DNA of 64,000 bases from an uncultured candidate division Zixibacteria bacterium. GTDB taxonomy: Bacteria > Zixibacteria > MSB-5A5 > UBA10806 > 4484-95. Both the position numbers and the translations under genes were made by a program. The stretch is taken from positions 128,001 to 192,000 of the forward strand of contig CAXXKA010000010.1 in the NCBI GenBank assembly GCA_963668625.2, read 5' to 3'. Below, piece by piece: positions 54,830 through 59,875 of this stretch. The notes under the pieces are model-generated. The model made no database searches, was not told the DNA's origin, and saw only the letters and a list, made by a program, of their open reading frames with translations. Positions within the stretch are counted from its first letter, which is position 1. Every line of letters starts with the position of its first letter.

Positions 54830-55354
54830 TTATACATCGCTTCGCCACTCATCCTCCAGTATAGACATACTGTGCCAGCTGATATACCCCGTGGAGGTCT
54901 TGGTGGCATCCCTCATCAAGCCCTCGGTTTTGAAACCGGCTTTTCGATAGCAAGCGATTGCCGGAGCATTGTCGTCATCAACGAAAAGCTGTACCCGGTG
55001 AAGATTCAACTGATCGAAACAGATAATCAGAAACTGCCGAATACTCTCGGCGCCGATTCCCTGCCCGCGCAGATTTTTATCGCCAATAACTATCTGCCCC
55101 AGATGCGCCAGGTTGTTTTCCCGAACCATGGTGGCGTGGATTACACCGATTAGCTTGTTTTCAGGCCGATACATGATACGATACCCCAGCGACACCGGTT
55201 CGCCATTGTCATAGGAAGGCAGCAACTGCTTGAGCTGCTCGATATCAACCGGCTCGTGGAATATACGGAACACCCGAGGATCGATCCACGGTACTATTGA
55301 TGCCAGATCCTCCGGCTCAAGCTCCTCGATTCGTATTTTGCTATCTTTGATGAT
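54830..55354 (-). CDS. RimJ/RimL-type GNAT acetyltransferase (probable ATC start)
   Basis: RGQGIG, N.PAI.CY.K.GF..EG and MSIL..EW; GGAGG before in-frame ATC codons; TTGACT-N17-TACAAT promoter at 55435-55407. Confidence 0.8.
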   Translation of the reverse strand: MIKDSKIRIEELEPEDLASIVPWIDPRVFRIFHEPVDIEQLKQLLPSYDNGEPVSLGYRIMYRPENKLIGVIHATMVRENNLAHLGQIVIGDKNLRGQGIGAESIRQFLIICFDQLNLHRVQLFVDDDNAPAIACYRKAGFKTEGLMRDATKTSTGYISWHSMSILEDEWRSDV

Positions 55355-55510
55355 TGAACGCCTCCGGGTTTGTTGATGCGGCTGTTATGCGAATAGTATC
55401 ATCATTATTGTAGTTTCGATATTGGGGATAGTCAAGAGTGGTTTGAGATACCTCTGTCATTCCCGAGGAAGCGGGAATCTGTATACATGGCTGATATGAT
55501 GATTGGCGGC

Positions 55511-56830
55511 GTTATTTATTCCTCAGGATGGAAAACGAAGTGACATCCTGAGGCGGCAGCGCGTCGGCGTTAGGATGTCGTTCTTTCTGTTCTGGTGGAT
55601 AAGGAATGCGGTGGGTTGCCCCGTGGGAATGGAGAGGGGGGCCAGGGTAACTCACCAGTAGGGTGAGTAGATGGAAATGATCTCCACAATAATTAATTAC
55701 GTCCGACTCATGCTTGGAAAGTTAATATGAAATATCTGCCCCCGCTTAAACTGTGCACACCCTACTGGTGTGTTACCTGTTATTTATTCCTCAGGATGTC
55801 GTTCCTTCTATCCTGATGCATAATGAACGAGGGATAGGGATGGGGAAAGGTAACTCACCTGTAGGGTGAGTAGATATAAATGATCACCGCAGTGAATTAT
55901 TCAGTCCGACGCATGTTTGGAAAATTTTATCCCTCAGGATGGAAAACGAAGTGACATCCTGAGGCGGCAGCGCGTCGGCGTTAGGATGTCGTTCTTTCTG
56001 TTCTGGTGGATAAGGAATGCGGTGGGTTGCCCCGTGGGAATGGAGAGGGGGGCCAGGGTAACTCACCAGTAGGGTGAGTAGATGGAAATGATCTCCACAA
56101 TAATTAATTACGTCCGACTCATGCTTGGAAAGTTAATATGAAATATCTGCCCCCGCTTAAACTGTGCACACCCTACTGGTGTGTTACCTGTTATTTATTC
56201 CTCAGGATGTCGTTCCTTCTATCCTGATGCATAATGAACGAGGGATAGGGATGGGGAAAGGTAACTCACCTGTAGGGTGAGTAGATATAAATGATCACCG
56301 CAGTGAATTATTCAGTCCGACGCATGTTTGGAAAATTTTATCCCTCAGGATGGAAAACGAAGTGACATCCTGAGGCGGCAGCGCGTCGGCGTTAGGATGT
56401 TGTTCTTTCTGTTCTGGTGGATAAGGAATGCGGTGGGTTGCCCCGTGGGAATGGAGAGGGGGGCCAGGGTAACTCACCAGTAGGGTGAGTAGATAGAAAT
56501 GATCTCCACAATAATTAATTACGTCCGACTCATGCTTGGAAAGTTAATATGAAATATCTGCCCCCGCTTAAACTGTGCACACCCTACTGGTGTGTTACCT
56601 GTTATTTATTCCTCAGGATGTCGTTCCTTCTATCCTGATGCATAATGAACGAGGGATAGGGATGGGGAAAGGTAACTCACCTGTAGGGTGAGTAGATATA
56701 AATGATCACCGCAGTGAATTATTCAGTCCGACGCATGTTTGGAAAATTTTATCCCTCAGGATGGAAAACGAAGTGACATCCTGAGGCGGCAGCGCGCTGG
56801 CATCAGGATGTCGTACCTTCCATCCTGATG
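55511..56830. repeat. 411-bp composite palindromic unit, 3 full copies plus a partial fourth
   Basis: CCTCAGGATGGAAAACG starts at 55521, 55932, 56343 and 56754; copies differ by single SNPs. Confidence 0.95.
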
Positions 56831-56883
56831 TATAAAAAAGGAGATGGTACGATAAAAGCATCTTGCTAATCTATTCTGTTGGT

Positions 56884-57056
56884 GTTAGAGCTTCGGTAAT
56901 GAATTTCTAACTGGAGCGGATAGGTTATAGGCTGAACTGAATGCTTGAGGCCAGACCTCGTAAAGGAGATTAATCAGACCTGTAACCGAATTGCCACCAT
57001 AAGGCAAAGACCTTGAATAGGAGTTTGGTAGGCGCCGACAGAGAGTCTGCTCCAGT
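56884..57056 (+). ncRNA. Putative bridge/seekRNA of the IS110 element
   Basis: Closing stem ACTGGAGCGGA/TCTGCTCCAGT; two loops each capped by an AGGC..AGACCT hairpin; loop segments match both IS junctions. Confidence 0.7.
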
Positions 57057-57081
57057 GATAACCATAGAATGGAGCAAGAAG

Positions 57082-58095
57082 ATGAGGTACTTAGGAGTAG
57101 ACCTTCACACAAACAGTTTGACCGTGTGTTACCTGACAGCCGGTGGTCGGGAGAGGATCAAGGAGTATCGGCTAAAGGATCTAAAGGAATTTAAACGAGG
57201 ATTAAAAAAGACGGATTGTGTAGCGGTTGAGGCCACTGGCAACACTCGTTATTTCGTTGATGAGATATCGCATTTGGTCAAGCGAGTTGTTGTCGTCGAT
57301 CCGAACAAATTTGAGATAATCAAATCATCAGTCAGTAAGACGGATGAAAACGATGCCAGGAACTTAGCCTATTTTATGAGCAAAGACATGTTGCCGAAAG
57401 CCCGATTAAAGACGAAAGATAAAGCGCAGATCAGTTCACTTGTTGGGACACGGGACAAGCTGGTCAAGTTACGTACAGCTTTGAAGAATAAAATACACAA
57501 CATACTCAATCATCATGGTATCAAGAGTAAAAAGGAGGCCTACTCCAGCAACAAGAGTTTGGAGCGGGTTCTAAAGATGAATTTTGATGAGGTTGTTTCT
57601 GTTGAGCTTGAGGTATTGGTTGATCAGATTCGCAGTTTGAATGAGGGGATAAAAAAGCTGGACAAACAGATAGAGGATCAGGGTCGCAAGTTGAACGGGC
57701 ATAAGAACCTGACCAGCATCAAAGGAATCGGCAGCAAATCAGCTACAGTGTTGCTTTCGGTAATTGGTGATGTTGCTGATTTTTCGGACAAAGATAAATT
57801 GGCCTCATATTTTGGCGTAGTGCCGCGAGTTTCCAATTCAAACGAGATTCAGCATCATGGTCGGATTACCAAGCGTGGTTCTAAGATTGGTCGGACTACA
57901 CTGGTGCAGTGTACGCTTGTTGCCATACGATATAACCATTACTTGAGTAAATATTACAATCGTATAAAAAACCGTCGTGGCAGCGGTAAGGCTATCATTG
58001 CCACAGCCAGAAAATTACTGGGAATAATCTATGACACCTTGAAAAATAATTGGGTGTTTGAAGATTTCCCTAACTTTGTGTTAGCAAACAGATAA
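57082..58095 (+). CDS. IS110-family DEDD recombinase/transposase
   Basis: YLGVDLH, VEATG, KTDENDA, GIG, and Tnp serine motif GVVP...SNS. Confidence 0.95.
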   Translation: MRYLGVDLHTNSLTVCYLTAGGRERIKEYRLKDLKEFKRGLKKTDCVAVEATGNTRYFVDEISHLVKRVVVVDPNKFEIIKSSVSKTDENDARNLAYFMSKDMLPKARLKTKDKAQISSLVGTRDKLVKLRTALKNKIHNILNHHGIKSKKEAYSSNKSLERVLKMNFDEVVSVELEVLVDQIRSLNEGIKKLDKQIEDQGRKLNGHKNLTSIKGIGSKSATVLLSVIGDVADFSDKDKLASYFGVVPRVSNSNEIQHHGRITKRGSKIGRTTLVQCTLVAIRYNHYLSKYYNRIKNRRGSGKAIIATARKLLGIIYDTLKNNWVFEDFPNFVLANR

Positions 58096-58195
58096 CTGAA
58101 ATTTGGAGTAGACTTTTATCATAGGAGTTTTTAATGTTTGCCGTTGATATGCTATCCTACCCCCGTAGTACCGGGGATGGGGCACCGGGCAAGAA

Positions 58196-59551
58196 CTACC
58201 AAACTTCCTTAGGTAAAATATCCGCGGCGAATAGATAAAACTCATTTACCCAATTGAGTCTGATATCATCTCGTTGATTTAAGGATTCCAGTATTCTATT
58301 CGTCAAATTTTCTAGATCCGAATATTGAACTTCCCTCAGCACATATAGAGCTTCAACAATATAGAAGAAGTTTTCTGATGATTTACTATTAATTATCCCG
58401 AGTAAAGCATCTATACCTTGTTCTCTGCTACCAAGCCTTATAACTGATTTTGCAGCCCCGAGAGCAACGTATGGATTATCGCTTTTAAGGAAAGGGAATA
58501 ATTCTTTGGCATCTTCTTTGTCTCCCAATATCCCCACTATTATTAATGCCACGCGCATTTTGGGACTATTTAAACCTTCCGGATTTAGTACTGGAATACC
58601 AGGTGTATATCCATCATATAAGATACTATCTTGGTGAGCAATGTTCCTCCGCCCAAGGCAGTAATCTAGTAAAACCGGTTCCCAGTTTTTATCAGGAAGA
58701 TTTTTTACGGGGAATTGACCTGGATAGTGCATTATAGGATTGAAAAGCGATTTATTTATAGTAACAAAGTTTTTTTCGTAGCGAACAAAAGCTTGATTTG
58801 CTACCTTTTCATTGTCGTCCTGTATAAGGTATTCAAGAATCTGCTTAGTCTCTGCGTCCCTTCTATCAAGATTACCTAAAAGAGAATATCTCGATTCCCA
58901 GCGGTCGCTTTTTAAACGCTCAATGAAATATGGTATTCGTCTTGTTATGTTAAGAGATTCTAAGTATTTACGGGCAAGAAGATTATTTCCCGATTTTATT
59001 TCATTATTATTAATTCCTTCAAGCATATTTTTTAGAATGTTAATTCTTCTATCATGTTCTTTGGTACGAAACGTGATTTCATTTAGTATCAGGGTTTTTA
59101 CTCGTTCTTCAATAGTTTCATCATCTAATTCCTTATTGTAATTCCAATTTGAAAGAATTGTCTGCGCTCCGCACACGGTTAGCATACGATATTCTGTGTC
59201 TTTGTTTTTATTTGTTATTTGTTTAAGAAATATGAGGTGGGTTGATCCACATGTGTATGGATTACTGATAGCTCCTTTTAAATCGTAGAGATGTGCTTTA
59301 ATTTGTGTATTGTATAAAATGTTCCCCTTAATTGTTTGCCTAATCGTGCATTCGTGCAAAGAGAATCCTGAGATACCTCCAAAATCTGACAAATTCTGGT
59401 CTACTTGTAAAATAACAATAGCATCTGCCTGGTTAATAAGCTTAGTAAGATCAATGTAAGAAGCGTTCTCTGCTGTGCATATTTCTCTGGTCCAGCCAAG
59501 TTGGTGTAATAATAGTACTAATAGAATATATGTGATGATTCTATTTTTCAT
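58196..59551 (-). CDS. Secreted protein: conserved N-terminal domain plus HEAT-like repeats (451 aa)
   Basis: GGAGG plus ATG at 59551 (the track's N-terminal extension is repeat-derived); signal peptide; L.SDNPYV.LGAAKS. Confidence 0.75.
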   Translation of the reverse strand: MKNRIITYILLVLLLHQLGWTREICTAENASYIDLTKLINQADAIVILQVDQNLSDFGGISGFSLHECTIRQTIKGNILYNTQIKAHLYDLKGAISNPYTCGSTHLIFLKQITNKNKDTEYRMLTVCGAQTILSNWNYNKELDDETIEERVKTLILNEITFRTKEHDRRINILKNMLEGINNNEIKSGNNLLARKYLESLNITRRIPYFIERLKSDRWESRYSLLGNLDRRDAETKQILEYLIQDDNEKVANQAFVRYEKNFVTINKSLFNPIMHYPGQFPVKNLPDKNWEPVLLDYCLGRRNIAHQDSILYDGYTPGIPVLNPEGLNSPKMRVALIIVGILGDKEDAKELFPFLKSDNPYVALGAAKSVIRLGSREQGIDALLGIINSKSSENFFYIVEALYVLREVQYSDLENLTNRILESLNQRDDIRLNWVNEFYLFAADILPKEVW

Positions 59552-59607
59552 TATAATTTCCTCCCAGAATATTATACAACGATAGGTGATAAAATATTCC
59601 ACTAATT

Positions 59608-59875
59608 TTTTATCCCTTAGGATGGAAAACGAAGTGACATCCTGAGGCGGCAGCGCGTCGGCGTTAGGATGTCGTTCTTTTTGTTCTGGTGGATAAGGAA
59701 TGCGGTGGGTTGCCCCGTGGGAATGGAGAGGGGGGCCAGGGTAACTCACCAGTAGGGTGAGTAGATATAAATGATCTCCACAATAATTAATTACGTCCGA
59801 CTCATGCTTGGAAAGTTAATATGAAATATCTGCCCCCGCTTAAACTGTGCACACCCTACTGGTGTGTTACCTGTT
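59608..59875. repeat. Isolated partial copy of the 411-bp unit
   Basis: Near-identical to the first ~265 bp of the array unit; lies between two paralogous genes. Confidence 0.95.

Follow-up and report, generated by a model that had tools for sequence, protein, structure and literature searches.

A probable RNA-guided IS110/IS1111-superfamily element from an uncultured Zixibacteria bacterium with a guide that spells a ribosome-binding site

The closest described relatives of the element reported here are the bridge RNA system of IS621 and the seekRNA systems of IS1111-type elements such as ISEc11 and IS4321. In IS621, the bottom-strand guide lies 5′ and the top-strand guide 3′ (PMC11208160), and handshake dinucleotides adjoin the top-strand guides and pair with non-cognate DNA after top-strand exchange (PMC11208160, PMC11208158); covariation of the loops with flanks and ends is the signature that defines bridge RNA guides (PMC11208160). 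The seekRNAs of IS1111-type elements place the top-strand match ahead of the bottom-strand match, and the elements themselves have subterminal inverted repeats, transposases of 330–350 aa and, in a few members, an upstream non-coding region (PMC11187229). Variant layouts are to be expected, because departures from the IS621 structure are reported for many bridge RNA models that nonetheless show covariation with target and donor (10.64898/2026.10.21.760802). Here we analyze an insertion sequence (IS) within a 64,000-nucleotide stretch of contig CAXXKA010000010.1 from an uncultured Zixibacteria bacterium (herein referred to as the window, whose coordinates are used throughout). We consider it very probably an intact, recently active, RNA-guided (bridge RNA/seekRNA) DEDD element of the IS110/IS1111 superfamily, with a guide that spells a ribosome-binding site (RBS) and a guide order reversed relative to IS621. 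This reading is carried by the identity of the element, its boundaries and copy number, its position at RBSs, a conserved RNA fold and three RNA segments that covary with the left flank and with both ends. RNA-guided IS110/IS1111 elements are already known and what the analysis adds is a layout, which appears to combine an upstream RNA whose guides follow an IS1111-like order, a target loop in which just one guide is demonstrable, a bottom-strand guide that carries a handshake-like dinucleotide and a 4-nt top-strand donor guide without the core.

A search of the window's genome locates the element at 11 sites, with 100% identity across about 1.3 kb. Aligned with their flanks, all 11 copies share AGGAG-ATGGTACG...TTTATCAT-AGGAG and begin to diverge right outside it. 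Because the copies share their ends exactly and their flanks diverge outside, the element comprises positions 56844–58122 plus one AGGAG, or 1284 bp, with the following parts.
56839–58127, plus strand: IS110-family element including both AGGAG, from the copy alignment
56839–56843, plus strand: left AGGAG, the target Shine–Dalgarno core, the same in 11 of 11 copies, with flanks that differ to its left
56844–58122, plus strand: insertion sequence body, 1279 bp (1284 bp with one AGGAG), from the eleven identical copies and unitig depth
58123–58127, plus strand: right AGGAG, 6 nt before the ATG at 58135, with the RBS restored
aaaaAGGAGatggtac: left junction, with AGGAG at 56839–56843
tatcatAGGAGttttt: right junction, with AGGAG at 58123–58127
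57082–58095, plus strand: transposase (bridge recombinase) gene, 337 aa; open reading frame (ORF) listed from 57013, with ATG and RBS at 57082

Contigs of the same organism's public runs contain a separate unitig with the same ends (1290–1291 bases), whose depth of 51.1 is about 8–9 times that of the flanks (5.6–6.4), and two wetland metagenomes hold near-identical pieces of the element with different flanks. The non-coding sequence amounts to 243 nt upstream of the transposase gene and 32 nt downstream of it. As in the IS110 family generally, terminal inverted repeats are absent, and nothing of the target is duplicated except the short core that it shares with the donor. An initial annotation, made from the letters of the window and its ORFs, had called an IS110 element with an AGGAG core. 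All the strings it quoted are present in their places, and the eleven identical copies with flanks diverging just outside bear out the call. It had also drawn attention to a hairpin resembling a repetitive extragenic palindrome (REP) beside the insertion; as a target feature this falls away, since the other copies are without it. The gene start behind every copy and the reversal of guide order relative to IS621 had escaped it.

The product of the gene matches the Pfam domains PF01548 (DEDD_Tnp_IS110; E = 5.7e-13) and PF02371 (Transposase_20; E = 5.4e-22) and scores 242.7 bits against NCBIfam NF033542 (“IS110 family RNA-guided transposase”), whose cut-off is 140; its assignment as an IS110-family RNA-guided transposase is supported. 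It aligns with the ISEc11 transposase over its full length (residues 1–317, 26% identity, E = 3e-24), and the transposases of IS4321 and IS5075 cover 93–96% of the query, whereas the IS621 and ISCro4 proteins align over residues 186–327 only (49.8 bits, E = 3e-12). Visual inspection of the translation and of its alignment with ISEc11 suggests as candidate catalytic residues D7, E50, D88 and D91, together with S253 in the motif G-x-x-P-x4-S (residues 245–253).

Relatives were collected by a one-genome-per-species scan, from which 80 of 160 confirmed loci were obtained, with proteins 52–64% identical. Their hosts belong to the Acidobacteriota, Omnitrophota, Spirochaetota, Nitrospirota, Planctomycetota, Pseudomonadota, Bacteroidota, Verrucomicrobiota and other phyla. 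Left ends of the relatives begin GGAG-A(T/C)G and right ends close CAT(A/G)-GGAG; GGAG is the sole block common to target and donor in all of them, and the crossover point is predicted to lie somewhere within it.

The insertion sites share a recognizable signal.
AAAGGAGT: Shine–Dalgarno-type target sequence
Left flanks are A-rich and run into AGGAG, so that the comparison of copies for an AAAGGAG target, which the initial annotation had suggested, returns AAAGGAG in eight of the 11 copies and TAAGGAG in the other three. Every one of the 11 has an ATG 5–7 nt past GGAG, in the orientation of the transposase gene. Nine of these ATGs begin ORFs that reach 116 codons or more, and several of the ORFs have a signal-peptide-like start; the other two ATGs, the window's included, open ORFs of 34 and 39 codons. 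Genome-wide and outside the elements, an ATG follows at 4–9 nt behind 384 of 1563 AAGGAG sites and 132 of 490 sites in the AAAGGAG subset; given the background of 384/1563, finding all 11 copies before an ATG is very unlikely by chance (P about 2e-7). The base after the core is T in 9/11 copies compared with 20.8% of comparable sites (P = 2.7e-5). For one copy (L003), the gene behind the insertion has an orthologue in two genomes of the same genus (about 70% DNA identity), and both orthologues are preceded by a single AAAAAGGAG, 6–7 nt and the ATG, as an empty site should look; related empty sites thus carry one copy of the core.

The relatives insert in much the same way. Of the relatives' insertions, 65 distinct ones have a right flank long enough to judge: an ATG follows within 3–10 nt in 57, and in 45 a start codon opens an ORF that reaches at least 50 codons or extends beyond the edge of the locus. 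The misses include short ORFs, a duplicated right end (L044) and a lineage without an ATG (L088, L094 and L096). At L044 (2540–2590), the final 16 right-end bases including AGGAG are tandemly doubled ahead of the downstream ATG, which may be a footprint or the solo end of an earlier event. A comparable preference has long been known elsewhere in the family: for IS900 and its mycobacterial relatives among the IS110-family elements, insertion takes place in a single orientation between an RBS-like AAGGNG and the start codon, with a larger transposase of the IS110 subgroup that runs opposite to the target gene. Our literature search found no description of an IS110-family element or bridge RNA aimed at a Shine–Dalgarno sequence; the supplements of PMC11208160, PMC11187229 and 10.64898/2026.10.21.760802 (Fig. 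S12) lay outside its scope and may show the clade, target or layout.

The leader ahead of the transposase gene folds into a stable and conserved RNA. For the 227-nt stretch that begins at 56858 and runs up to the start codon, the predicted free energy is −80.5 kcal/mol (z = −5.85), and none of 200 shuffled sequences is as stable. A consensus structure, obtained with RNAalifold and our own refinement from 42 aligned leaders, consists of a closing stem, a loop 1 with a 12-bp stem and an inner hairpin, and a loop 2 with an inner hairpin of the like GGC...GACC type.
56884–56911, plus strand: leader 5′ stem-loop (GTTAGA / TCTAAC), from the minimum-free-energy fold; the alignment is poor here
56913–56920, plus strand: closing stem, 5′ strand GGAGCGGA, pairs with 57046–57053 (helix 1: 8 pairs, 6 changed on both sides, 95.5% of cells paired)
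57046–57053, plus strand: closing stem, 3′ strand TCTGCTCC (helix 1)
56923–56934, plus strand: outer stem of loop 1 (the putative target-binding loop), 5′ strand (helices 2–3: 12 pairs, 8 changed on both sides)
56975–56987, plus strand: outer stem of loop 1, 3′ strand, pairs with 56923–56934
56946–56960, plus strand: inner hairpin of loop 1, motif NNGGC...GACCNN (helix 4: 98.4% paired), with GAGGCCAGACCTC at 56947–56959
57000–57015, plus strand: inner hairpin of loop 2, GGC...GACC motif (helix 6: 98% paired, 4/6 pairs changed on both sides), with AAGGCAAAGACCTT at 57001–57014

Across the 39 pairs of the consensus, 92.8% of cells are paired compared with 85.6% in column shuffles and 31–46% when partners are slid by 1–3 columns. 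Compensatory changes on both sides affect 23 of the 39 pairs (136 cells), and none of 500 shuffles reaches any of these measures. A single pair of hairpin 1 (143/192) illustrates the exchange, being AU in 20, GC in 20, CG in one and UA in one of the 42 sequences. The two parallel loops read from the window by the initial annotation thus reappear as conserved hairpins in two internal loops. A covariance model built from the RNA core (R1; 152 positions, 36 pairs) retrieves from the window's genome only the 11 copies, with no solo RNA. By eye, the RBS of the transposase gene (GGAG at 57072–57075, within TGGAGC) can pair with GCTCCA at 57049–57054, overlapping the 3′ strand of the closing stem; RBS-sequestering hairpins are likewise visible by eye in relatives, and this pairing could switch the leader from the bridge RNA fold to translation of the transposase or back.

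Candidate guides were assessed by comparing the RNA, position by position, with each element's own flanks, using permuted pairings as a control.
56962–56968, plus strand: candidate left-target guide AAAGGAG, 3′ side of loop 1, covarying with the left flank
56969–56970, plus strand: AU after guide 1, equal to the first two bases of the IS left end and not to the target
57017–57023, plus strand: candidate left-donor guide AUAGGAG, 3′ side of loop 2, tracking the right IS end
57024–57025, plus strand: UU behind the donor guide, which may form a handshake with the right target (weak)
56993–56996, plus strand: candidate right-donor guide GCCA, 5′ side of loop 2, with its complement in the IS left end (top strand, +5 to +2)
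56935–56945, plus strand: variable stretch (11 nt) on loop 1's 5′ side, where a right-target (top-strand) guide would be expected

Guide 1 lies within the string AAAGGAGAU (56962–56970), equal to AAAGGAGAT after hairpin 1, which joins the left flank to the first two bases of the IS. Its letters agree with the left flank in 33 of 39 elements at −3 (permuted mean 18.2) and in 41 of 41 at both −2 (three cases of G-G) and −1 (one C-C and one T-T), and the agreement continues through GGAG; at −4 only 8 of 38 match, and at +3 none of 42. The dinucleotide that follows agrees instead with the IS left end, at +1 in 41/42 and at +2 in 42/42 elements, the latter including eight C-C cases that the transposase tree places in at least two distinct clades, as opposed to 13/36 and 3/36 agreements with the right flank; in this respect it behaves like a handshake dinucleotide. 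Guide 2 equals the right IS end in 37 of 37 elements at each of −3, −2 and −1 (with four G-G cases at −1, all in one clade), and its next two bases match the right flank in 16/36 elements at +1 and again at +2 (p = 0.07 each, across families). Cross-controls, pairing guide 1 with the right end or right flank and guide 2 with the left flank, were negative. Because both guides have top-strand sense, they would pair with the bottom strand.

A third contact emerged from a mutual-information scan of all RNA columns against all flank positions, which otherwise gave scattered single right-end hits that we read as clade effects. Here, GCCA is complementary to the IS left end: RNA column 238 forms Watson–Crick pairs with +2 in 39 of 42 elements (permuted mean 28.5), column 237 with +3 in 42 of 42, column 236 with +4 in 36, with G-U in the remaining six (permuted mean 19.7), and column 235 with +5 in 12, with G-U in 25 more (37/42 with G-U). 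The initial annotation had placed the donor guide 3 nt further downstream, at ACCAT (56996–57000) opposite ATGGT; that register does not covary (p = 0.71, 0.20 and 0.84 at its three variable positions) and we prefer GCCA. Its broader proposal that the sequences after the hairpins serve as guides is sustained by the matches with the left flank, the IS left end and the right IS end, and the guide–target covariation it had named as a check is found in letters that vary together with the flanks. Its more specific equation of ATAGGAGTTT (57017–57026) with the right junction survives in part: ATAGGAG holds across the family and the next T in 9/11 copies, whereas the last TT belongs to this copy alone.

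For the right side of the target, we share the initial annotation's view that the guide match is poor, since no register or run test is convincing. The longest complementary run between the 5′ side of loop 1 and the right flank averages 3.82 compared with 3.56 in permuted pairings (p = 0.02, 57 pairs), and the best of 48 fixed registers reaches p = 0.013 (mean 1.6 vs 1.3 of 4 pairs, 31 families), a value that we do not count because 48 trials were made and common AT-richness can explain it. One lineage provides a natural case of retargeting: in four Acidobacteriaceae loci (L088, L094, L096 and L098), guide 1 reads CACGGAG and the flanks are CCACGGAG | (A/G)CACGGAG repeats that lack a start codon. 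A neat match to the right flank is seen in this lineage only, where UGUG on the 5′ side of loop 1 is complementary to positions +2 to +5, which amounts to one event.

Set against the described systems, the locus resembles IS621 in its recombinase with DEDD and Tnp domains, in an RNA encoded in the left non-coding end, in a promoter that would be formed by end joining, and in two internal loops (target and donor) whose guides include the shared core and whose extra dinucleotides match the non-cognate partner (PMC11208160, PMC11208158). Unlike in IS621, both bottom-strand guides lie 3′ of their inner hairpins and the top-strand donor guide 5′, the handshake-like dinucleotide follows the bottom-strand target guide, the top-strand donor guide lacks the core, no right-target guide is evident and the target reading would span ~7–8 bp; the proteins align over the C-terminal half only. 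With the IS1111-type elements ISEc11 and IS4321, the locus has in common the placement of the top-strand match first, which here applies to the donor loop (in the target loop, the bottom-strand guide alone was found), as well as subterminal inverted repeats, a transposase whose 337 aa fall within 330–350 aa and the end-to-end alignment with ISEc11 (PMC11187229). It departs from them in a non-coding region that lies upstream rather than downstream of the gene encoding the transposase, in short inverted repeats (8 bp here), in a serine motif that reads G-V-V-P-x4-S-N rather than GL-P-x4-S/T-G (PMC11187229), and in the lack of any match of model R1 in the ISEc11 or IS4321 loci. The upstream RNA, the S-N serine motif and the missing RNA-model match argue against simply filing the element under IS1111.

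The two ends carry a candidate promoter and inverted repeats.
58109–58114, plus strand: putative −35-like TAGACT at the right end, which would be active only once the ends are joined
56845–56853, plus strand: TG and −10-like TACGAT at the left end (TG 56845–56846, TACGAT 56848–56853, TG one base before the −10)
56851–56858, plus strand: subterminal inverted repeat, left arm GATAAAAG, partner 58113–58120
58113–58120, plus strand: subterminal inverted repeat, right arm CTTTTATC, overlapping the −35

In a circle that keeps one AGGAG, TAGACT and TACGAT would be 17 bp apart. Over 47 distinct end pairs, agreement with TTGACA is highest at the offset of TAGACT (mean 3.36/6, compared with 2.74 one base away and 0.8–1.9 at other offsets), and the signal one base away comes from one clade with 18-bp spacing. 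At the place of the −10, all 47 end pairs match TATAAT at three or more of six positions and 39 have the TG; a −35 match of at least 4/6 together with a −10 match of at least 3/6 occurs in 28. The circle-junction promoter put forward in the initial annotation is therefore conserved in position, with the support residing in agreement with the consensus, and junction promoters are established in other members of both families (PMC11187229). Its subterminal inverted repeats are likewise real: the longest exact end-to-end repeat is 8 bp here and 4–14 bp in relatives, with a mean of 8.3 as against 4.7 in shuffled ends (47 end pairs).

Several further observations concern the ends. The right-end sequence GGAGTAGA (58105–58112) is identical to the consensus 8-mer of the closing stem's 5′ strand and partly overlaps the −35, and AGT[ATG]GA is present within the last 50 nt of 38 of the 47 end pairs (relatives L031–L110). 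A three-codon mini-ORF (ATG GTA CGA TAA) opens the left end at 56844–56855, straight after the target AGGAG; in relatives it reads ATG-NNA-TGA or similar, it overlaps the −10 and the binding site of the donor guide, and it may lack a meaning of its own. In one clade (L055–L061, L068 and L074–L077, all from one Robiginitomaculum chromosome, and L082, L083, L086, L097 and L100), the transposase stop codon TAG is the start of the terminal TAGGAG; the end of the element falls within its own stop codon and the −35 lies inside the coding sequence. Outside the element, 411-bp tandem units (3.2 copies, 99% matches) occupy 55515–56814 of the window, with a further unit near 59600–59750; every unit ends in the REP-like hairpin CATCAGGATG...CATCCTGATG (56801–56830), and the IS copy abuts the last of them. 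The hairpin is thus the end of the 411-bp array and accompanies the window's copy only.

From these elements we propose the following route. Excision would join the ends into a circle, in which the junction TAGACT-N17-TACGAT would drive a leader RNA of roughly 200 nt together with the transposase gene. In the resulting recombinase–RNA complex, the target would be paired to loop 1 and the joined ends to loop 2: the (A/U)AAGGAG of loop 1 would read the target's bottom strand (three flank bases and GGAG), and in loop 2, GCCA would read the top strand of the IS left end while AUAGGAG would read the bottom strand of the right end along with GGAG. Strand exchange within the shared GGAG would then insert the element into an RBS, in the orientation of the gene. 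Since an AGGAG comes with the right end, the downstream gene would keep an RBS at the same spacing, and it would be cut off from its promoter. Guide 1 also matches the integrated left junction perfectly over 9 nt, which could favor excision. Because the target reading spans ~7–8 bp and a right-target guide is not demonstrable, any strong RBS would be a potential landing pad.

How far the guide itself accounts for the gene-start association can be argued in two directions. Conceivably, with a chance that we put somewhat short of even, the guide picks (A/T)AAGGAG only and the link to gene starts arises later, via the loss of in-gene insertions or the easier opening of AT-rich leader DNA. This would fit the failure to demonstrate a right-flank guide, the variable spacing from GGAG to ATG (4 to 9 nt), the insertions of the retargeted CACGGAG lineage without an ATG behind them, and the 2/11 own copies that stand before ORFs of just 34 and 39 codons. 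However, 11/11 copies against a background of 25%, together with 57/65 in relatives, is a very strong bias for selection alone to produce, and such an account is strained because insertion sequences commonly persist inside non-essential genes; the preference for T after the core (9/11, P = 2.7e-5) also indicates some reading beyond the 7-mer. Exclusive gene-start use exceeds a reading of ~7–8 bp, and therefore post-insertion selection or a further determinant must contribute. More ambitiously, the clade, spread over a dozen or more phyla, might represent a distinct bridge RNA architecture and a general gene-start homing element, with a single Shine–Dalgarno-mimic bottom-strand guide of ~7 nt, handshakes beside the bottom-strand guides and a regenerated RBS; we regard this as a tentative and rather unlikely generalization. 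Were it true, bottom strands would be exchanged first, the reverse of IS621, and the element would uncouple genes from their promoters while leaving translation signals unsilenced.

Two other accounts dispense with the guides or with their order. It is very unlikely, in our estimation, that the canonical IS621 layout holds and the inferred secondary structure is wrong. The non-coding region does lie upstream of the gene, as in IS110-type elements (PMC11187229), and the stem of loop 2 is weak (78% paired), but numerous compensatory changes preserve the inner hairpins and the outer stem of loop 1, which lie 5′ of both bottom-strand guides, the sole top-strand guide found lies 5′ of its hairpin, and the alignment of the protein with an IS1111-type transposase extends over its full length. 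Hardly credible at all is the notion that the AAAGGAG and AUAGGAG of the leader are translational or regulatory elements (RBS mimics, decoys or a leader switch), with the protein itself recognizing AGGAG DNA, despite both being perfect Shine–Dalgarno sequences and despite the ability of the transposase RBS, judged by eye, to pair with the 3′ strand of the closing stem. Where the target differs, the motifs shift with the flanks (CACGGAG, AGAGGAG, UGAGGAG, AAUGGAG and UAAGGAG as against AAAGGAG), and the dinucleotide after guide 1 and GCCA follow the IS left end, which is the kind of covariation by which bridge RNA guides are defined (PMC11208160).

The reading of the locus as an intact RNA-guided element with RBS-spelling guides has to be held against several observations that weigh on the other side. 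The leader alignment covers 42 of 60 distinct leaders, the 18 omitted (L058, L060, L061, L067, L068, L070, L071, L074, L076, L079, L081, L083, L090, L091, L094, L096, L109 and L110) being further copies from genomes already represented, and its weakest helix, around loop 2 (78% paired), has a 5′ strand that would also serve as the donor guide. Conservation of the target leaves most guide positions almost without variation, and independent covariation events are few at some positions: the change in guide 2 at −1 occurred in one clade and the AU/AC exchange in the dinucleotide in at least two. A 7-nt guide is too little for a 100% association with gene starts. A search of Rfam release 15 with window positions 55000–59500 gave no match at E up to 1, and model R1, run against the IS4321 and ISEc11 loci, returned best E values of 0.18 and 0.23, neither in the expected non-coding region and strand, so that RNA homology to IS1111-type seekRNAs is not shown. 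Among Logan contigs, none joins the right end to the left end (a circle) and none skips the element (an empty site), which has no bearing on activity, and the 18 public runs that contain the stretch include no RNA run.

On the preferred reading, the element would be a natural, multi-phylum case of a bridge or seek RNA programmed against a functional signal, the RBS, rather than against a repeat, and elements would pile up before genes because the guide is programmed in this way. On covariation alone, the IS621 guide layout does not appear to be universal among elements with an upstream RNA. If confirmed, the layout would bear on the order of strand exchange and on the design rules of bridge recombinases, and would offer a compact system with a short and easily rewritten target guide. 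For genome annotation, it would mean that such insertions part a gene from its promoter and leave its RBS intact.

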